A DNA stretch of 64,000 bases from Dissulfuribacterales bacterium (GTDB lineage: Bacteria > Desulfobacterota > Dissulfuribacteria > Dissulfuribacterales > DYLC01), in assembly GCA_041287365.1 (NCBI GenBank), contig JBEULL010000020.1, positions 3,426 through 67,425 of the forward strand. The letters run 5' to 3'. The notes below the pieces were generated by a model that searched no databases, was not told the DNA's origin, and worked only from the letters and a program-made list of their open reading frames with translations. Positions 53,105 through 64,000 of the stretch are shown here, in pieces (position 1 is the first letter of the stretch; each line of letters opens with the position of its first letter). Both the position numbers and the translations under genes were made by a program.

Positions 53105-54441
53105 ATGCAAAATGTGGATTTTTTGCTCATCAACCCATGGATTTACGATTTTGCTGCCCATGATCTGTAGCTCAAGCCATATGGACTTTTACAATTGGCG
53201 GGCAAGCTTCGAGGGGGTGGATATAGCATTCACTACCTTGACCTACTTGATTCCTTTCACTCAGAGCTGCCCATTCCCCCCACGACGGAAATCCTATGGC
53301 ACGGGCTCTTTCTATCGAGAGATAGTCCTCAAACCCGCTTTTTTTCAGAATGTCCCCAGAAGATTTTACCGGCACGGAATGCCATTTACACTGTTTCTGA
53401 AGGAGCTCGCCTTCATCAGGTTCAAGGCAGTTATGCTCACCTGTAGTATGACCTACTGGTATTCGGGCCTGTTTGCCCTCATTGATTTTTTTGCCAGGCA
53501 TTATTCACACATACCCCTTTATGTTGGTGGAATTTATGCCATGCTCTGTGAAGAACATCTCCTGATTTTATTCAAACCAATTTTCCATGGTTGAATTTCG
53601 AGATTGTAAATGGAAAACAAGACAAATTTATTCAGTGGTTGCAAAGGAAATACCCTCCTTCAAGTGTTCCTCATGGTCATGGCTATCCTGCCTTTGACTT
53701 GCAGCGTCGCATTCCGTATGTGGTGCTTTGACCTCTGAAGGCTGCCCGTTTAATTGTCCCTATTGTGCCTCCAGAAGGCTTTATTACTCATTTCACCAAA
53801 AGAACCCACAAGAAATAGTTGAAGAGATTCTATACTGGTATGACAACCATAATGTGCTGGATTTTGCCTTTTACGACGACGCATTGCTTGTGAATTTTGA
53901 CCGTCATTTAGCAGTGATACTTGAAGAGGTTTGCAGAATGGGCCTGAATGTCCGTTTTCATGCTCCAAACGCCATGCATGCCCGATTCATTGGTCGTGAA
54001 GCGGCATTGCTCTTCAAACAGGCTGGTTTTACCACCATAAGACTGGGACTGGAGCGCATAGAAGACCGTTTTGATAACAAGGTGACCACAGATGAATTCA
54101 GAGAATCAATAGAGCACCTAAAAAATGTGGGATTCACTTCAAAGGAGCTCGGAGCCTATGTTTTGTACGGTATTCCTGAAGAGGATTTTGATGCCGTCAA
54201 AAGAACGGTTATTTTTTTAGAAAAATTGGGTGCGATGCCGTATCTGGCTGAATTTTCTCCCATTCCACACACTCCATTTTTTTAACTTGCCCAGGAGACT
54301 TCACGTTATCCCATATCAGAGGAGCCACTTTGTCAGAATAATACCGTATTTCCTGCCTTAAAAAATCCGCCATGGGCAACAATTCAGGAGATCAAGGACT
54401 TGGCAAGGAATATACGAATGAAGTTAATCAGCGTCACCTGA
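53105..54441 (+). pseudogene. B12-binding radical SAM pseudogene
   Basis: MQNVDFLLINPWIYDFAAHDL ends at TAG 53168-53170 but continues in frame as LKPYGLL; frameshifts; TSEGCPFNCPYC; TAA 54283-54285 followed by in-frame continuation to TGA 54441. Confidence 0.85.
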
Positions 54442-54885: not shown

Positions 54886-54974
54886 ATACTTAAAACAGAA
54901 TAAGGCGTTGGACAGCCAGTTATAGTCAGTTACACATCACAGACTAACAATTGAAGCTGACAGGAGGAATTATC

Positions 54975-56834
54975 ATGTTAACCAATTCAAATATCAGGGT
55001 GAAATGGCACGTTGAAAGTAACTGCATCAAAACAGAATGGTGCACCCCTCTATCCAGCACAAGCCAAACAGTTCTGGACATATTGGATCAGGACTGCCTT
55101 GATACTTACTTTCAGCCCATCTGTTCTTTGATAGATGGGTCAGTGTTTGGATATGAATCCCTTGCACGGTTGGCCAACAACCCTTCAACCAATATATGTC
55201 AGATCTTCAGGAATGCCATCGTAACCAGAACAATCATATTTTTAGATATGAGATGCAGAGAAAATGCGGTTAAAAAGGCCTCTGAGCTCGGATTGGCTAA
55301 CAGATCCAATCTGCTGTTTATAAACACTGCGCCTGATGTGCTGACAGATGATGCTCACTCAGTCAAAATGGCTTGCGACATGGTAAAAAAATATGGCTTC
55401 AAAAACGAACAGGTTGTTATTGAAATCACAGAAGAGGGAAATGGCCATAATTGTCAATTCATGAAAAGGGTTATTCAGGAATATAAAGACGCTGGCTTCA
55501 AAATTGCGATTGATGACTTCGGAGCCGGATATGGCGGACTTGCGATGCTGTCAAATATAGAGCCGGATTTCATTAAAATAGATCGACAGTTCATTTCAGA
55601 TATAGATAAAGCTGCAATAAAATATAACCTAGTCGATTCGATCGTGACTTTATGCCACAGACTTGGCATAAAAGTCATCGCAGAAGGGATTGAGAGAGAT
55701 GAAGAGTTGAAGATAGTGCAAAGCATGGGCATAGAATTCGGACAGGGATATCTTCTGGGGAGACCAGCCTCAACCTTTAATTTCAACGCCGTACCGATTC
55801 CAAAGCGCCACAATATAAGCAAGAGCACACGGGAAATTTCCACGATTTTTGATATAACAGAGTATGTGGAACCGTTGACGCCGGATACAAACATATTCGA
55901 AGCGCAAAGAAGATTTTTTCAAGATAAACGGCTTCAAATGATACCTGTAATAGAAAACAGTAGGATAATTGGCATCATACAAAGAAACAGATTTCTTGAA
56001 AACAAGCTTATCGGAAATTTTGGCTTTGGAATGCATATAAATGCAAAGAAAAAAATCAAGCAACTGATGGAAGTTCCAAGCATGATAGTGGAAGCTGACT
56101 TATATATAGAAGAAGTCGCACAAAGGATCAATGGTCGGGAATTTGAATTGTTATATGATGATATCTGTGTGACATCGCATGGAAAATATGTCGGAACAGT
56201 CACTATTGCAAAATTGTTACATACAATCACAGAACAAAACATCAGACTTGCAAAAAATCAAAATCCACTGACAGGTCTTCCTGGCAACGATGCGATAAGA
56301 AAGGTGATTCAAAAGAAAATAGACCAACATATACATTTTGATATACATTTTGATGTTTGCTACATCGATATAAACCACTTCAAACCCTACAATGACCACT
56401 ATGGATTTGAAAAAGGCGACTTAGTTATTCAGACTCTGGCTCAGATACTTGTAGATTCAGTAGCTTATTCTGAACACGAACAATTTAATTTTATAGGACA
56501 TATCGGGGGAGATGATTTTATATTGATGCTTCATCCAAAAGACTCTCTAAATATATCAGCTAAAATTATCGACAAAATGGAAAAAGAACTTATTACATTT
56601 CATGGAGAAGAAGATTTTCAAAAAGGTTATTATGTATCAAAAAACAGAAAAAACGAGACAGAGATATTTCCATTGCTCTCCATTGCAATTGCTATTGTAA
56701 GCACAGAAGTCACATGCATAACATCCTATGCCCATTTAGCCTCTGTAGCCGCAGAGGTTAAAAAAGCCGCCAAGCAAAAGGCTTACCAGACAAAAAAGTC
56801 AGCAATCTGCCGAGACAGACGATTAAATGGTTGA
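54975..56834 (+). CDS. EAL-CBS-GGDEF c-di-GMP metabolism protein (RapA-like architecture)
   Basis: FQPI, ESLAR, IEITE, DDFGAGY, KIDR, AEGIE, GQGY; CBS pair; NPLTGLPGN, D...FK.YND.YG...GD, GGDDF; RBS AGGAGG. Confidence 0.93.
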   Translation: MLTNSNIRVKWHVESNCIKTEWCTPLSSTSQTVLDILDQDCLDTYFQPICSLIDGSVFGYESLARLANNPSTNICQIFRNAIVTRTIIFLDMRCRENAVKKASELGLANRSNLLFINTAPDVLTDDAHSVKMACDMVKKYGFKNEQVVIEITEEGNGHNCQFMKRVIQEYKDAGFKIAIDDFGAGYGGLAMLSNIEPDFIKIDRQFISDIDKAAIKYNLVDSIVTLCHRLGIKVIAEGIERDEELKIVQSMGIEFGQGYLLGRPASTFNFNAVPIPKRHNISKSTREISTIFDITEYVEPLTPDTNIFEAQRRFFQDKRLQMIPVIENSRIIGIIQRNRFLENKLIGNFGFGMHINAKKKIKQLMEVPSMIVEADLYIEEVAQRINGREFELLYDDICVTSHGKYVGTVTIAKLLHTITEQNIRLAKNQNPLTGLPGNDAIRKVIQKKIDQHIHFDIHFDVCYIDINHFKPYNDHYGFEKGDLVIQTLAQILVDSVAYSEHEQFNFIGHIGGDDFILMLHPKDSLNISAKIIDKMEKELITFHGEEDFQKGYYVSKNRKNETEIFPLLSIAIAIVSTEVTCITSYAHLASVAAEVKKAAKQKAYQTKKSAICRDRRLNG

Positions 56835-56942: not shown

Positions 56943-57986
56943 TTAAATCTTGCTTGTTTCCACATGAAACCTTACTGTTGAACCTATAACCGTGCTTTTT
57001 CCGGTATGGAGAAAGGTTGTCACAAATATCAACTGAAGAAAAAGCAAGGGTTCTGCGCCCCAAATTCTGTGCAGACCCGTGGTCAAATCCACAAGCTGGG
57101 TGGTGCTCTGAAAGAAAAAAACCAGTGCGCCAACGTAACAGATGCTTGCAAGCGCCATTTTCTGGTATGCGGATATATTGCCCTCACCCCTGTAATCAGC
57201 CCGAAGTGTCTCTGAAAAAAAACGCCATAATTGCGTAACCGCAATGACGATAACAAGCGATGTCCTGAAAAAGCCATACAAAAAAAGCATTGTGCAGAAT
57301 ATGGCTGTCATCACGTATAAAACTGCTGTGAGTGCCTGAACCGGCACCACCGGCTTGCCATCCATATTGCCTGCATAGGCTATTTTTTTTGTCTTGCCAG
57401 AAAAGACAAAATTAAACCTGCCAAATAACCTTTGAACAAACTCATTAGATTCTGTCAGACTTTTACCATAACAACATCCGAAACTAATGCAGGCAAGCCT
57501 GCCGGTTCCCTCACCAAAGGCATAAGCAATAGCTGTGGCGCAAAGCATAGGAATAACAGGTGATGTGAGCCATGGAATGCCTGTCTCATTCATCCCCCAC
57601 AAAATCCACGGGGCAAAAACAATGCCCACGAAAGATGCGCCTCCCACAGTCAGTGTGTGCCTTTTTTTCTCTACGATCCAGGCGACAATACTTGACGCAG
57701 GGATGCAGATGGCAAGCATGAGCTCAACAAACAAAAAAACGCCGAAGAAATGTACATTCAGCGAGAATGTAAGCAGAATGAACATGGCGGCTGCGATGGT
57801 GTAAGCCAATGCTGAAAAAAAACCATAATATGTGAAAGCTAACCCTTTCCACACTCCATTTTCAAGCATTGCGACTGGAACACTGGCAATAAACTGCCAT
57901 CTTTCCTGTGTCAGACTTCTAAACGCCCACTTGAAAAGCACCAGATAGCCAACGGATAAAAACGTTAAAAACAAAATAGTCTCCAT
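56943..57986 (-). CDS. Lgt (prolipoprotein diacylglyceryl transferase)-like membrane protein, divergent
   Basis: Multi-TM; GEGTGRLACISFGCCYG, PVQ and RFFSETLR resemble the Lgt GRxGC/N..GCC.G, PxQ and RFxxExxR motifs; RBS AAGGAG. Confidence 0.75.
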   Translation of the reverse strand: METILFLTFLSVGYLVLFKWAFRSLTQERWQFIASVPVAMLENGVWKGLAFTYYGFFSALAYTIAAAMFILLTFSLNVHFFGVFLFVELMLAICIPASSIVAWIVEKKRHTLTVGGASFVGIVFAPWILWGMNETGIPWLTSPVIPMLCATAIAYAFGEGTGRLACISFGCCYGKSLTESNEFVQRLFGRFNFVFSGKTKKIAYAGNMDGKPVVPVQALTAVLYVMTAIFCTMLFLYGFFRTSLVIVIAVTQLWRFFSETLRADYRGEGNISAYQKMALASICYVGALVFFFQSTTQLVDLTTGLHRIWGAEPLLFLQLIFVTTFLHTGKSTVIGSTVRFHVETSKI

Positions 57987-57999
57987 GATGGCCTGCTCC

Positions 58000-58998
58000 T
58001 TATCTTTTTCTTGTTGCTATGGAAGAACGCACGTTCAGATCGGTTTCTACCATTTTTGAGCCAAAACCTGCTGAAAACCTGCTTTTTGCCAGAATATTGT
58101 GCTGATTTTGTATGAGATCAGCCTCAAACACCACTCGGTCTTTTTGAAACAGCAGGACTACAGTGCTGCTTCCAGGCCTAAACAGGCTCTTTGGCTGCCC
58201 CTTTTTCAAAAACATACCGAGTTTCATCTCCTTTGGGGCATCATATGCCACTTCACTGTAATACTGTTTAATTTCGCCTATCATGAGCGCCGCCACCTCT
58301 ATCATTGCGACAAGCCCCACGTAACTGCCTCCTTCACAGTCTGTATCTATGATGGTCACCGCCCTTTTGTTCTTGGAATAGGGCGTCACAAGGTTTATCA
58401 CTGCTGAAGGATTACACGAGTGATAACTGCCATTCAGCTCATAGAAATCCATGACAATCCCTGAGACAGGCATGTGGTTGTAGTGGTATTTCTCAGGTGT
58501 AAGCCGAAATATCGCAAAATCACCAGACCTGAAGGCATCTATCCATAAGGCTTTTTTCGCACCAAGCAACTCCTCAAAGCTGAAAAACTTCTCCTTGATA
58601 AAAAACAGTGCAGTTTCACATAACGATCCTATCAAGACCTTTGAATCCGCCGGAGAAACAATACGTTCGGAACAATCGTCCATTGGCCTGCAATCCCAAT
58701 AGCGAATCTTGCGCTCAAAGATTTTGCGAGGTGTATTAAGGCTCTGAGGTGGGTCAAGGCATTCCGACATATTTACACCCATCATTTTCAAAAACGCCAG
58801 ATTGCCGGTAAGCCTTGATGCAAGCAATGAATCGTAGTTGAGGTAACCCAGAAGAGCTGAGCTTATACTGTTTGTCAGGGCATTAAATACAAATGCAGAG
58901 TTTTCCCTGACGCTTGCATAGATAAAGTTGACTATTTTATCTGCATACAGCTTTTCTGTTAATATTTTACCAGTTGATCGCTCTATATATTGATGCAT
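58000..58998 (-). CDS. phosphatidylserine decarboxylase-family pyruvoyl enzyme
   Basis: FERKI, VSPADS, IKEK.F...ELL, FRLTPEKYHYNH.PVSG, KNKR, self-cleavage motif FRPGSSTVVLLF. Confidence 0.88.
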   Translation of the reverse strand: MHQYIERSTGKILTEKLYADKIVNFIYASVRENSAFVFNALTNSISSALLGYLNYDSLLASRLTGNLAFLKMMGVNMSECLDPPQSLNTPRKIFERKIRYWDCRPMDDCSERIVSPADSKVLIGSLCETALFFIKEKFFSFEELLGAKKALWIDAFRSGDFAIFRLTPEKYHYNHMPVSGIVMDFYELNGSYHSCNPSAVINLVTPYSKNKRAVTIIDTDCEGGSYVGLVAMIEVAALMIGEIKQYYSEVAYDAPKEMKLGMFLKKGQPKSLFRPGSSTVVLLFQKDRVVFEADLIQNQHNILAKSRFSAGFGSKMVETDLNVRSSIATRKR

Positions 58999-61423
58999 AT
59001 GCCGCTGATTCCTTTTCGCTGTTTTCAAATAACGCTGTATTATACAAAACTACTAGTAGGATTATATTTACAAGCATTTTTATTTCATCTATTGACAGAC
59101 TGTCTGACAAAAGTTTCGCTCTGAGTTCATTACATAATCCTTTAATATTTCTGCGTTTTGATAGATATGCAACTGCGTGCAGTAGTCTACTGTCAAGGGC
59201 GCAGGCATTATCTTCAATCGCAGCGATATCCTCGTTTACAAATCCTAAAGCCTCATCGAGATATTGTCTTCTGAGTTCATTGCGGTAGTATCGTTCAGCA
59301 GCAAGATTGAACTCATTGGCCTCCATCCTGATAGCTTTCTTATTTGATGATGCGCCAAGGATGCCATCTAAAAGTTTGGCCTTGGCAGAGTGCAAATGCG
59401 GGGCTTCAATACGCATTTCAAGATCAGACAAGTCCTCTTCAAAGCCCCACATCTCTATCAGATCTGCTGCATCCTTTCGAAGCACCTTCAAAAGCGCCTT
59501 GTTGTACTCCTTAGCGTAAACCCTGATATAACCTGAATAACGTCTGCTGGACCTTGTTTTTTCAGTGTATTGCAAGATGTAACGCAAAAAAGCATTTTGT
59601 GTGTCTGAACACACAAAGAAGGTAGGAAGCCCTATAGCTGATGCAAAAAATATCTGTCTGCGCTCACTTTCCACAAAAACACTATCAGGGATCATTTCAT
59701 GCTTCAATTTCTGCTCAGCTATGTACTTGAAAGCAAGACATGAGACCAGAACTTGCATGTTGACGGCATGTGTCATGTCATGCCTGAGGCTTTTAAAAAG
59801 GCTGTAATATCTGCCTTCAAAGCCTGAAAAACCCATTTTTTCATATTCCCTGAGCCGGTAAAGCTGATAGACAGCCATCCTTTCATCAAATACGCCCATC
59901 TCAGCCAGATCACGCTTGAGCCTCTCGCTGTTTCCGACCTTGCCATCAAGAGATGGGTTTTGATCAGTGCTCAGAAGCGCGGCCATATAGTCAATCAACC
60001 TGAAATCATCTACAAAATCCCCTGAAAGCCTGAAGGTGGCGGCAATGAAATTGTCCAGCCACTTCGGGCCAAAAGGCGTAACAGGCTGCCCGAAGATATT
60101 TATATGGGCCTTTTTCTTCCACCGTCTCCATAGCATTCTGAGGTGTGTGTAATGCAGTTCATGCGGCAGAAACCCAAGGGCATTTTCAGGATGAAAGTCT
60201 GCAAATCCAAGCCGATAGGGCGCTGCGCTGTAGGTGCCCACAAAAAGAGGCAAAAAATGTTCAATTATCTTTATGGCAAGGTCGCCAAGGTGTTTTTCAT
60301 GGGCTTTTGTAACCCTGTTCTCCTGAAAGGCGTTGGATAATATTCTGCTTCCGAGGCTGATATGTGTGCCATTATTTGCAAGACTAATGTTTGAGGTGTT
60401 TGGGAGAGAGACAAGATTGTTGTTGATGATGCCGGCTTCCTTCAACTTTGAAATGGCATTTAATCGGCTTCTACTTAAAACCTGGTGACAAAGTACCATA
60501 TAATGATATTTTTCCTCACCCATTTGCCAGCCTGAAAGACAAGGACTGATAAAAAGCTCCCTATAGAATGAATCGGAAATGATGTCGTTGAGATAGCGCT
60601 GTCTTATGGGAGGATGGGGAGAAAAATACACCACTGCCTTTTGTTTTGTATCTTCAAGTTGAAACTTTCTGTTGGCATAGCTGACCAGTAGACTTGACAA
60701 CAGGAAACGGATGGATTTTTCTTTTGCGACCTGACTGCCCCCTGCCGCTTCAGGGCCAAGCCTCATCACATAAAAGGAATATGTTTCAGGAGATGTATTG
60801 TCGTTCAGATAATGCTTCAAAAGCCGTATGGCAGTTTGACGGATGGAAATCGGAAGCTCCTTCTGCACGCCGACAATGTCAGCAAGACTCAGCTTAATCA
60901 GATAGCTGATCGGTATCCTGATCATTTCCACACCATCTATGATCTTTATGAACCTGCTTATATCCTTTCTGTAGCCGTTAGCCTTGTTTTTTTTATTAGC
61001 AAGTAGGTCTTTGAATAAGACGCGTCGGGTAAAAGTATCAAGTAGAATTGGTGAAAATCTTACCCAGCTATTTTCCCAGACATTGTCTGAATTGTTATCA
61101 AGATATTCATCAAGATCAGACAGTTTAGCCTTACTGACCTCTCCTGTTTGCCATCGTTTAACTATGTTATTGTAATAGTTGGAGGATTTGATAGTGACAG
61201 GAAGGTCAACGTCGTCTTTGCTTCCATATACTGCAACTTGCAACTCACTTTCAGAACCTGCCGTCACATCAAAAGGAGTAAAGGGAAGTTTGCTGTAATT
61301 TAGCTTGCCATCAGGGAGAAAAAGCCCGAGGGTGCTCAAAATCTCCAGAGTGGATACGGAATCTGCCTGAAAATCCCTTTGTTCCGAACTTATCGATGCA
61401 TGCAGCTTGAGAAGCCTTGCCAT
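58967..61423 (-). CDS. large hypothetical protein, probable glutamine synthetase/gamma-glutamylcysteine ligase-fold carboxylate-amine ligase
   Basis: Long intact ORF with RBS AAGGA 6 nt before ATG 61423; motifs TAGSESELQ (GxExE), NNGTHISL (GxH) and GFEGRY (ExR). Confidence 0.6.
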   Translation of the reverse strand: MARLLKLHASISSEQRDFQADSVSTLEILSTLGLFLPDGKLNYSKLPFTPFDVTAGSESELQVAVYGSKDDVDLPVTIKSSNYYNNIVKRWQTGEVSKAKLSDLDEYLDNNSDNVWENSWVRFSPILLDTFTRRVLFKDLLANKKNKANGYRKDISRFIKIIDGVEMIRIPISYLIKLSLADIVGVQKELPISIRQTAIRLLKHYLNDNTSPETYSFYVMRLGPEAAGGSQVAKEKSIRFLLSSLLVSYANRKFQLEDTKQKAVVYFSPHPPIRQRYLNDIISDSFYRELFISPCLSGWQMGEEKYHYMVLCHQVLSRSRLNAISKLKEAGIINNNLVSLPNTSNISLANNGTHISLGSRILSNAFQENRVTKAHEKHLGDLAIKIIEHFLPLFVGTYSAAPYRLGFADFHPENALGFLPHELHYTHLRMLWRRWKKKAHINIFGQPVTPFGPKWLDNFIAATFRLSGDFVDDFRLIDYMAALLSTDQNPSLDGKVGNSERLKRDLAEMGVFDERMAVYQLYRLREYEKMGFSGFEGRYYSLFKSLRHDMTHAVNMQVLVSCLAFKYIAEQKLKHEMIPDSVFVESERRQIFFASAIGLPTFFVCSDTQNAFLRYILQYTEKTRSSRRYSGYIRVYAKEYNKALLKVLRKDAADLIEMWGFEEDLSDLEMRIEAPHLHSAKAKLLDGILGASSNKKAIRMEANEFNLAAERYYRNELRRQYLDEALGFVNEDIAAIEDNACALDSRLLHAVAYLSKRRNIKGLCNELRAKLLSDSLSIDEIKMLVNIILLVVLYNTALFENSEKESAAYASIYRAINW

Positions 61424-61450
61424 GGACAATCCTTATATTTTTTGACAATG

Positions 61451-61495
61451 AGGATAATCACAGGAAATGACAAAAAAGTTAAAATAGTGTTATAG
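61451..61495 (-). promoter_or_regulatory. PhoB-type promoter for the ligase/PSD/Lgt operon
   Basis: Minus strand CTATAAC-N4-TTTTAAC-N4-TTGTCAT (three half-sites, 11-bp period), exactly 10 bp, then -10 TATCCT. Confidence 0.6.
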
Positions 61496-61540: not shown

Positions 61541-61745
61541 GAAAAAAAAGAAGAAAGCAAAGAAGAAAGGACCAATAAGAAAGGACGGCCAATAAGAAAG
61601 GACAGGCATATCTTTTAAAATAAAATTTAATAATAAAATACATTAATAAAGATATGCCTGTCCTTTCTTTTCTCCGCTTTCTTTTCTCCCTCCTTTCTTT
61701 TCTCCTTTTCTCCCCCTTTTTTTTCTTTTCATTGCCTTCTTTTCC
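61541..61745. repeat. 76-bp palindromic element A (61594-61669) with flanking truncated end-repeats
   Basis: 22-bp perfect arms AAGAAAGGACAGGCATATCTTT / AAAGATATGCCTGTCCTTTCTT around a 32-bp AT spacer; left-side partial copies of AAGAAAGGAC, right-side copies of CTTT(T)CTCC. Confidence 0.9.
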
Positions 61746-62705: not shown

Positions 62706-62781
62706 AAGAAAGGACAGGCATATCTTTATTAATATATTTTGTTATTAAATTTTATTTTAAAAGATATGCCTGTCCTTTCTT
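62706..62781. repeat. 76-bp palindromic element B
   Basis: Same 22-bp arms as element A; spacer is the reverse complement of A's spacer with 2 mismatches. Confidence 0.9.
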
Positions 62782-62938: not shown

Positions 62939-64000
62939 TCAGATATCCAAAGGGCTTCGCACGCCAAGAAGATTTCTTTTTGCCACATGGGTATAGATCA
63001 TGGTGGTCTGAAGGTTTGTATGACCCAGCAGCTCCTGTAACGTCCTGACATCATATCCTGCTTCAAGAAGATGGGTGGCGAAGCTGTGTCTCAGCGTGTG
63101 AACCGATGCCTGTTTTGCAATCCCTGTCTTCATAAGCGCCTGTTTGAAGGCCTTCTGAACCGTTGTCGGAAAGATATGATGCCTCCTGACCCGTTTTGTT
63201 ATTGGATCAACTGACAGGCTCGCAGAGGGAAAGACCCAGAACCACGCCCATTCCTTTCCTGCATTTGGATATTTCAGGCCCAGGGCATCGGGCAGCCAGA
63301 CCCCGTCAATATTATTCTTGCGGTCCTCATCATATAACTTTCTGACTTTGTTAAGGATATGTTCCCTAACCAGTTCCCTGACAGACTCGGCCAGAAGCGT
63401 CTGGCGGTCTTTATCCCCCTTGCCGCTTCTTACTGTCAACGCGCCCCTTTCAAAATCCACATCCTTGATGCGCAGTTTCAGACACTCTTCAAGCCTGAGA
63501 CCTCCACCATAAATGAGGGTCGCCATCAGCTTTGTCGTGCCTTCCATGGCATCGAGAAGCCTCATCACCTCCTGCCTGGAAAGCACAACTGGCAGACGTT
63601 TGGGCCGGTTAGATCGCACCGCAGCATCCATATCCTTGATTTCCTTGTCAAGCACATGACGGAAGAGGAAAAGCAAGGCATTAAATGCCTGATTTTGAGT
63701 TGCAACAGCCGCCTTGCCTTCTACTGCAAGATGACTCAGAAAGTTTTCAATATCAGATTGCTCTATTGAATTTGGCAGCTTATGTCCAAGATAGGCTGCA
63801 AAACGCCTGACCCAACCCAAGTAGGTCTGCTCTGTATGATAGGAACGATGGCGAAGCCTCAAGGCCTTTACCATGAGATCGCCAATGTCTGCCCAGCCCT
63901 GTTGTGCTTCAACGCCGCTATTTTCAGAATCTGTTTTTTGTGCCTTTTCTGTGAAGTAGATGAAAAGCCTCACAGCCTCCTTGGCCTGCAAGACCTGCAA
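62939..64000 (-). CDS. intI: integron integrase, long form (5' end outside window)
   Basis: Tyrosine recombinase residues GLRLEE, GKGDKDR, HTLRHSFATHLL, LLGH and TTMIYTH, plus IntI-specific insertion V.LP.AL..KYP.A..EW.W.WVFP....S.DP....RRHH. Confidence 0.95.
   Translation of the reverse strand: MQVLQAKEAVRLFIYFTEKAQKTDSENSGVEAQQGWADIGDLMVKALRLRHRSYHTEQTYLGWVRRFAAYLGHKLPNSIEQSDIENFLSHLAVEGKAAVATQNQAFNALLFLFRHVLDKEIKDMDAAVRSNRPKRLPVVLSRQEVMRLLDAMEGTTKLMATLIYGGGLRLEECLKLRIKDVDFERGALTVRSGKGDKDRQTLLAESVRELVREHILNKVRKLYDEDRKNNIDGVWLPDALGLKYPNAGKEWAWFWVFPSASLSVDPITKRVRRHHIFPTTVQKAFKQALMKTGIAKQASVHTLRHSFATHLLEAGYDVRTLQELLGHTNLQTTMIYTHVAKRNLLGVRSPLDI

Follow-up and report, generated by a model that had tools for sequence, protein, structure and literature searches.

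We report on a three-gene operon in a 64,000-nucleotide stretch of DNA from a Dissulfuribacterales bacterium (contig JBEULL010000020.1 of assembly GCA_041287365.1, positions 3,426 to 67,425 of the forward strand; hereafter, the window) and propose, with a probability of roughly 0.6, that it makes 4-aminobutyryl-cysteine S-diacylglycerol, a phosphorus-free lipid of the BACys class, when phosphate is scarce. The genes lie on the minus strand and encode a ligase-like protein of 818 amino acids (aa; 61423-58967, with ATG at 61423 and AAGGA at 61434-61430), a pyruvoyl decarboxylase proenzyme of the PSD family (332 aa; 58998-58000, ATG at 58998) and a membrane protein of predicted Lgt fold (347 aa; 57986-56943); the last two each have a second copy in the genome. 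An earlier note, made from the sequence alone, had described three tightly coupled genes, and the open reading frames (ORFs) are indeed found in those places: the ligase-like and PSD-like ORFs share a 32 bp overlap, and the Lgt-like ORF begins 13 bp past the PSD-like stop. Since the EAL-CBS-GGDEF gene (54951-56834, plus strand) is convergent with the Lgt-like end of the operon and the DUF364 gene upstream is divergently oriented, the operon unit consists of three genes. The trio is thus a three-gene, minus-strand operon, and a conserved one, as described below.

In the proposed pathway, PhoB would turn the operon on. The 818-aa ligase would use ATP to link glutamate, through its gamma-carboxyl, to the amine of a cysteine that is either free or already lipid-bound. 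The Lgt paralogue, predicted to be inverted in the membrane, would take a diacylglyceryl or ether-glyceryl group off a phospholipid (probably phosphatidylglycerol, PG), attach it to the cysteine thiol as a thioether, and free glycerophosphate inside the cell, the phosphate being reusable. The PSD paralogue would form a Schiff base with the alpha-amine of glutamate, the only free one, and remove its carboxyl, so that an anionic lipid resembling phosphatidylserine (PS) would become a zwitterionic lipid resembling phosphatidylethanolamine (PE). The earlier note had put forward the general scheme (an amide-linked head group, diacylglycerol taken from PG, decarboxylation); it has now been made specific and predicts the BACys formula.

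That the trio is the BACys pathway, with an isomeric product allowed for, is likelier than the exact structure given above. The complete picture, in which a flipped Lgt, a new glutamate-cysteine-ligase family and a PSD acting on a dipeptide form a thioether route to a phosphorus-free lipid in about one-eighth of the genomes of the phylum and some outside it, stands at even odds. We infer the catalytic steps, their substrates, the order of the ligase and Lgt steps, the thioether linkage, the topology and the induction; the gene anatomy, co-occurrence, fold matches of the models, conserved motifs, promoter statistics, identity of formula and presence of the genes in a producer were established directly.

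The computed product has the formula of BACys lipids

The product was derived from the three enzyme classes before it was compared with a BACys lipid. If glutamate is joined to cysteine, diacylglycerol is attached through sulfur, and the only carboxyl beside a free amine is lost, the result is 4-aminobutyryl-cysteine S-diacylglycerol. For this product we computed C45H87N2O7S+, 799.6229, with a head ion of 205.0641. A report of 2024 tentatively described 'N-butyramide cysteine glycerols' (BACys) in Desulfatibacillum alkenivorans PF2803T, with 799.6228 and a head ion of 205.064 (PMC11181052). The ether forms of the computed product agree with BACys as well. According to the same report, BACys increase from <1% to about 65% of lipids under phosphate starvation, and their cores are acyl, mixed and diether, as in PG and PE (PMC11181052).

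The producing species encodes the trio. At one surveyed locus, L057, each of the three proteins is identical to a record under the name D. alkenivorans DSM 16219, a strain which we take to be PF2803T. In the published table of 390 lipids, all of the extra-oxygen species found by a label search (9/9) are BACys; three are labelled 'OH-DAG' (DAG, diacylglycerol) and six '0-OH', with no such label for PG, PE, glucuronosyl (GlcA) lipids or cardiolipin (CL) (table of PMC11181052). Oxidation of the thioether to a sulfoxide would explain these species.

Several points weigh against this assignment. The authors read the extra-oxygen species as hydroxylated cores, and the report covers a single producing species, with a structure that they themselves call tentative (PMC11181052). 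The formula cannot tell a thioether from an ester, nor from an isomer, gamma-glutamyl-cysteamine S-diacylglycerol. Moreover, the presence of the genes in a producer and the match of formula are together necessary, not sufficient, for assigning BACys to the trio.

The isomer would arise if the Lgt-like protein made S-diacylglyceryl-cysteine, the PSD-like protein turned it into cysteamine-diacylglycerol, and the ligase then added gamma-glutamate. Its formula and head ion are identical to those of BACys. S-diacylglyceryl-cysteine is the direct thio-analogue of PS and fits the ordinary-looking active site of the PSD-like protein, while a basic, aromatic insert at ligase residues 425-470 (mean of 9.3 K+R and 7.5 W/F/Y) could allow membrane binding and accommodate a lipid amine as acceptor. 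However, by its authors' reading the spectra show butyramide plus cysteine (PMC11181052), which fits 4-aminobutyryl-cysteine better than glutamyl-cysteamine, and a string search of the lipid table gave no formula of a cysteine or cysteamine lipid. We regard the isomer as rather unlikely. The computed diagnostic ions differ: 86.060 and 120.011 for 4-aminobutyryl-cysteine (4-aminobutyryl, cysteine) versus 130.050, 84.044 and 76.022 for the isomer (pyroglutamyl, cysteamine).

The operon had been put forward as a candidate undescribed pathway to a phosphorus-free lipid. This holds for the route, which is absent from the literature searched, but not for the product class, which was probably reported chemically in 2024, without genes. 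The words 'genome', 'enzyme' and 'pathway' occur in the main text of PMC11181052 in the references only, and reading and term searches of the paper gave no genes or pathway; a term search of the accessible text of a 2026 amino-lipid review gave no mention of BACys. Nothing that ties genes to BACys or describes the trio was found in the accessible literature, which included PMC5193443 and PMC12927429 and few subscription journals. The purpose itself has precedents, and all three enzymes fall within established superfamilies.

The 818-aa protein is predicted to be a carboxylate-amine ligase

The large protein had been described as unannotated, and no Pfam or NCBIfam family matches it at E 0.1. 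Neither its single sequence nor its profile matches PDB sequences, and a search of the ESM Atlas returned unnamed clusters only. The protein was modelled with AlphaFold2 from 101 sequences (predicted local distance difference test, pLDDT, 80.5; predicted template modelling score, pTM, 0.88). In a structural search against 48,161 chains, the best match of the model was GshA 3nzt (Z 15.9, 412 residues, root-mean-square deviation, rmsd, 4.7), and further matches were 1v4g (Z 15.6), YbdK 1tt4 (15.4), GshF (15.1), PafA (14.1) and Dop (13.9). All nine chains with Z of at least 8 are glutamate-cysteine ligases, YbdK, GshF, PafA/Dop or glutamine synthetase (GS), and the best unrelated chain reached 5.5. 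The expectation of a GCS2, GS or PafA fold was thus borne out by the model.

The catalytic motifs of the superfamily were taken from the accessible text of PMC2588565 and sought in two alignments, one of 101 rows (A1) and one of 40 diverse rows (A2); residue equivalences were assigned by motif order, not by superposition. The GxExE, GxH and ExR motifs of the earlier description are present as G56-x-E58-x-E60, G352-x-H354 and E536-x-R538 and are invariant in 101/101 rows of A1. G56, E58 and E60, on strand 53-60, are kept in 38/40 rows of A2 (two rows lack the N-terminus), and position 57 of this GhExE motif is small (S/T/V/A). D208, E213, R475 and R525 are invariant across both alignments and fit the acidic residues of strands 2 and 3 and the arginines of strand 5 and of the loop that precedes it. 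The motifs occur in the expected order, with H354, E536 and R538 of the [HD]x[NH] (strand 4) and Ex[RK]x2D (strand 6) motifs invariant.

On the other side, the last positions of these two motifs, S356 and S541, deviate from the superfamily. Comparison of the ligase family by hhalign was not significant, with probabilities of 0.4% for YbdK and 0.1% for GshA, and Foldseek found nothing for the model at E<=0.001 (best E 0.005), its top rows being of the same families. The GS fold alone gives no substrates. On balance, the model and motifs place the 818-aa protein, by prediction, among the carboxylate-amine ligases of the GshA/YbdK/PafA group, outside the GshA and GCS2 Pfam families.

Matches to PF04262 or PF04107 were not found in the genome of the window, nor were GshA, GCS2 or GshB found over cut-off in the genome of D. 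alkenivorans or in four others. Glutathione synthesis was considered as a role of the ligase and rejected, as GshB is not found over cut-off in 5/5 genomes. A search for a longer ligase fused to another domain gave none, which is weak evidence. Ligase residues 295 and 312-313 are invariant or near-invariant Cys/His with no assigned role; a metal site or a thiol relay is possible.

The PSD-like protein keeps the machinery of its family

The decarboxylase of the trio had been read as a member of the PSD family with a GSST motif; it matches PF02666 with 137 bits (cut-off 22) and carries PGSST at residues 275-279. D118, H172, H175 and G276-S277 are invariant in 33/33 sequences. The first three align with D90, H144 and H147 of the E. 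coli enzyme, whose cleavage serine S254 was paired by motif. The mechanism of PSD relies on an Asp-His-Ser triad and a Schiff base with the amine of the substrate (PMC7952604, accessible text). The protein falls under every NCBIfam equivalog cut-off (157 versus 371 bits).

What weighs against a new substrate is that the PSD-like sequence shows no change of one. The phosphate-contact positions are retained, R165 and mostly S194. We considered R165 as a mark of a changed substrate and rejected it, since Arg occupies this position (Y137) in 15% of ordinary PSDs. The genome also has a second, short psd adjoining a gene read as pssA, and an ordinary lgt elsewhere. The idea that members of the trio are simply the housekeeping lgt or psd was therefore rejected, and the ordinary copies speak in favour of the earlier reading.

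The ordinary look of the PSD-like protein also bears on a reading in which the trio modifies a protein or peptide: the ligase would act like PafA, the inverted Lgt would lipidate a cytoplasmic cysteine, and the PSD would be an ordinary one. The ligase model lies structurally close to PafA and Dop (Z 14.1 and 13.9), the D208-x3-P-E213 stretch of the ligase presumably resembles PafA, and the known acceptor of Lgt is a protein cysteine. However, no small partner gene recurs among neighbouring ORFs of at least 120 aa (Pup-sized tags lie below that size), the genome already has a psd beside pssA, and PE synthesis costs phosphate, which is mismatched with Pho control. We consider protein modification very unlikely.

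The Lgt-like protein may be inverted in the membrane

The third protein had been called a divergent Lgt-like membrane protein, and both its weak sequence matches and its model agree with that. There is no Pfam match at E 0.1; the NCBIfam Lgt match is weak (E 0.017), PF01790 stays sub-threshold (19.7 bits, cut-off 24.9), and the nearest clusters to the protein carry PF01790. The model (pLDDT 93) shows the seven-helix Lgt fold and has a single clear match, E. coli Lgt 5azc (Z 13.2, 230 residues), the next reaching 5.9. The Lgt-aligned part covers residues 26-292, with one extra helix before it and one after. In the Foldseek search nothing was found at E<=0.001, with 5azb ranked first at E 0.002. 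Y54, G162, R163, G174, R255, E259 and R262 are invariant in 34/34 rows and correspond to E. coli Y26, G142, R143, G154, R239, E243 and R246; the equivalences from R143 to R246 come from the alignment and that of Y26 from motif reading.

Against the Lgt assignment stand the following observations. Searching PDB sequences with a profile built from the Lgt-like family gave no Lgt, and the match of that profile to canonical Lgt was weak (probability 10%, E 0.003). Position 120, the equivalent of His103, is never His in the 34 rows, and the H103-GG motif is absent; His103 is needed by E. coli Lgt (PMC4728403, accessible text). Finally, the invariant C166 and C171 replace N146 and E151 of the Lgt signature. 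Cysteines at residues 166, 171 and 172 are invariant or nearly so and have no assigned role; here, too, a metal site or a thiol relay is possible.

In E. coli Lgt the signature lies on the periplasmic side and the cytoplasmic face is positive (PMC4728403, PMC8048626, accessible texts). We counted the density of lysine and arginine (K+R) in loops delimited from the model and hydropathy. In the Lgt paralogues it was 0.150 on the motif side and 0.048 on the opposite side (34/34), whereas in canonical Lgts, 16 sequences picked by a motif filter from 30 fetched loci, it was 0.073 and 0.235, respectively (16/16). This predicts that the paralogue is inverted in the membrane, with its active site facing the cytoplasm. 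Such a topology would remove the objection that Lgt acts outside, while ATP-dependent ligases and PSD act inside, and it would account for the missing His motif that binds the lipobox.

The changed residues can also be read as signs of a different chemistry. The operon might make or remodel another phosphorus-free lipid with another acceptor, e.g., serine, an amine or a thiol, while BACys come from other genes. Carboxylate-amine ligases take many amines (PMC2588565, accessible text), the Lgt paralogue combines the absence of His103 with three invariant cysteines, and glycosyltransferases of the lipid-remodelling type are found near the trio in 9/47 loci. However, it would then be a coincidence that the three enzyme classes add up exactly to the formula of BACys in a carrier, D. 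alkenivorans, in whose genome no further glutamate-cysteine ligase turned up. We judge another lipid to be unlikely.

The operon is probably Pho-controlled

Upstream of the ligase-like gene, on the minus strand, three Pho-box-like half-sites lie 11 bp apart within 61467..61495: CTATAAC (61495-61489), TTTTAAC (61484-61478) and TTGTCAT (61473-61467). A predicted -10 hexamer, TATCCT (61456-61451, minus strand), follows 10 bp after the last half-site, the same spacing as in the pstS promoter of the genome. This arrangement had been pointed out before; its sequence is confirmed and its score is beyond chance. The promoter scores 17/21 against the Pho half-site consensus. When a -10 is required at 10 bp, 17 is reached only by this promoter and pstS among 836 upstream regions and by 0/3000 dinucleotide shuffles; without the -10 rule, the score is met by 3/836 regions and 5/3000 shuffles. 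With two half-sites only, the promoter is unremarkable (11/14; 76/836 regions equal or better), so the signal depends on the three-site register.

As this scoring rule was set with the earlier description known, the independent test is a matrix learned from relatives. A three-repeat matrix was trained on 71 upstream regions of relatives, with the window's own left out. Its log-likelihood was 221.6 at period 11 and 49-82 at six other periods, with the consensus yyT(A/C)A(C/T). In the genome of the window it ranks pstS (identity confirmed by TIGR02136) 1/836, the operon 13 and a phoB-like gene 61. The upstream repeat of D. alkenivorans scores 12.2, above the 99th percentile of the genome that holds the window, this locus having been part of the training set. 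By the half-site consensus, 11/73 relatives reach 16/21 versus 0.45 expected (the 73 leave out 15 loci that are duplicates or the genome's own, as well as loci with little upstream DNA, and still contain two near-duplicate pairs). The operon's Pho box is thus beyond chance. The operon promoter is not listed in a sigma-70 scan, which is neutral and is expected since no -35 is present. A listing of RNA holders has none for this region, which speaks neither for nor against the reading.

Phosphate genes were found in 18/47 loci (16 without a PhoU-kinase fusion), compared with 1.5% of stretches taken at random from the genome that carries this operon; the references for this count came from the loci themselves and the thresholds were self-set. 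The neighbours include PstS, PstC, alkaline phosphatase and phosphonatase; the PstA, PstB, PhnI and PhnJ labels are without family-scan confirmation, and the PhoB-like neighbours are best matches below cut-off (228-276 bits versus 296 for TIGR02154). Against control by phosphate, 29/47 loci, that of D. alkenivorans included, have no phosphate gene nearby, and the upstream regions of two relatives of the same genus match the motif poorly (L002, 3.3; L108, 1.4). In L002 the trio lies within an operon behind alkaline phosphatase.

A further explanation is that the trio modifies lipids independently of phosphate, with the upstream repeat bound by another regulator of the OmpR family. Direct-repeat sites are common to regulators of this family, of which the genome has at least four, and the PhoB-like neighbours stay under the TIGR02154 cut-off. 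However, the relatives' matrix ranks pstS first, and known phosphate genes are among the neighbours. This we regard as highly improbable, and Pho control of the operon as probable from the sequence evidence.

As a separate observation, the phoB/phoR-like pair of this genome, at L106:4342-8741 (contig C10), has its own two-site repeat upstream and lies behind two genes that read like GT2 glycosyltransferases, without an NCBIfam match at 1e-40.

The three genes are conserved together

Relatives of the ligase number 2927 at E<=0.001 among 7994 candidates scored, with 708 representatives at 50% clustering; the best 120 show 53-87% identity and no Pfam family. The trio is adjacent and in the same order in 14/14 named loci, 20/20 longer loci and 17/17 more, a few genomes being counted twice. 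The 14 named loci are from Thermodesulfobacteriota, a Phycisphaeraceae, a Victivallales and a SAR324 record. L066 and L116 have inserts of ~5 kb, and L109 is a duplicate of L002.

In a single even sample of 401 genomes from the phylum, all three genes were present in 46, two in 3 and none in 352, with each gene in 48. Of the three partial trios, one ends at a contig edge, another has deletions in two genes, and in the third the ligase lies at a contig edge. The ligase occurs in 83/301 genomes of the order of G032, in 7/31 near relatives and in 1/151 genomes of the family of G035; these counts are descriptive and are not tests, as kin are not independent. The survey of neighbourhoods and genomes thus agrees with the suggestion that the trio is conserved as a unit.

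Some copies are broken: the ligase is split in L012 and L013, the Lgt-like gene is shortened in L010, and two genes have deletions in L128, which may reflect assembly error or decay. Among the glycosyltransferases that recur near the trio is a long GT4 fusion (~800 aa) in 8/47 loci (L058, L065, L067, L068, L071, L075, L116 and L120), and one locus, L004, has a gene resembling monogalactosyldiacylglycerol (MGDG) synthase. Both are candidates for making the glucuronosyl lipid that accompanies BACys.

Surroundings of the operon in the window

A relative of the EAL-CBS-GGDEF gene lies close to the trio in 5/47 other loci. On either side of the DUF364 gene there is a 76-bp AT-rich palindromic repeat (61594-61669 and 62706-62781) with 22-bp arms and a DNA fold z of -10.1. 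Full copies occur elsewhere in the genome on contigs C10, C17, C19, C25 and C30, and partial ones on C4, C9, C23 and C28; it is possibly a small mobile or integron-related element. An integron integrase (62939-64000, minus strand; TIGR02249, 407 bits, cut-off 265) is found ~1.5 kb upstream of the operon promoter. At 53112-54285 (plus strand), two short ORFs of 160 and 185 aa look like fragments of one B12-binding radical SAM gene, and the second, which was scanned, matches the middle of such profiles.

Significance and comparison with known systems

If the proposed reading is true, an orphan lipid class that can account for about two-thirds of the membrane lipids in a sulfate reducer starved of phosphate would gain genes and a structure, and BACys would have a genomic marker for use in anoxic sediments and aquifers. 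The reading would also extend the Lgt family to a small molecule and to the cytoplasmic side, extend the PSD family to a dipeptide head group, and reveal a ligase family of thousands of members that is invisible to sequence profiles.

The closest known counterpart is BACys of D. alkenivorans, which share the formula, the head ion and the setting of phosphate limitation with the predicted product, in a species that encodes the trio (PMC11181052, main text and table). The two descriptions differ in that the published structure is tentative and without genes, and in the certainty of linkage and isomer. In purpose, sparing phosphate under Pho control, the lipid would resemble the lipids that replace phospholipids under phosphate starvation, i.e., ornithine, betaine, glucuronosyl and other glycolipids and sulfoquinovosyldiacylglycerol (SQDG) (PMC11181052, main text); D. 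alaskensis G20, for instance, makes glycolipids and ornithine lipids (PMC5193443, accessible text). The trio differs from the ornithine, betaine, glycolipid and SQDG routes in its enzymes and head group, and the lipid moiety would be taken directly from a phospholipid in a single step that needs no phospholipase C.

Among the enzymes, the likeness of the 818-aa protein to the glutamate-cysteine ligases GshA (1v4g, 3nzt), the N-domain of GshF (3ln7), YbdK/GCS2 (1tt4) and PafA/Dop (4bjr, 9cku) is one of predicted fold (Z 13.9-15.9, 338-413 residues aligned, rmsd 3.5-4.7) and of catalytic motif order. It differs from them in its low identity (10-13%), the lack of a Pfam or NCBIfam match, large inserts and Ser at two motif positions; no glutathione synthetase partner was found. 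The PSD-like protein shares the triad, the Gly-Ser cleavage and the pyruvoyl chemistry with PSD (PF02666; E. coli 7cnw; PRK00723 type) and with PsiD-type decarboxylases (9jer, 8zia), amino-acid decarboxylases which show that the family is able to take other substrates; in contrast to known PSD, PGSST replaces LGST, and the gene is partnered with the ligase and Lgt-like genes and not with pssA. The Lgt-like protein resembles Lgt (E. coli 5azb/5azc; PF01790) in fold and in the equivalents of Y26, G142, R143, G154, R239, E243 and R246. It differs in an extra helix at each end, a reversed positive-inside bias, the absence of His103 and Cys in place of N146 and E151, and it exists in addition to the canonical lgt of the same genome.

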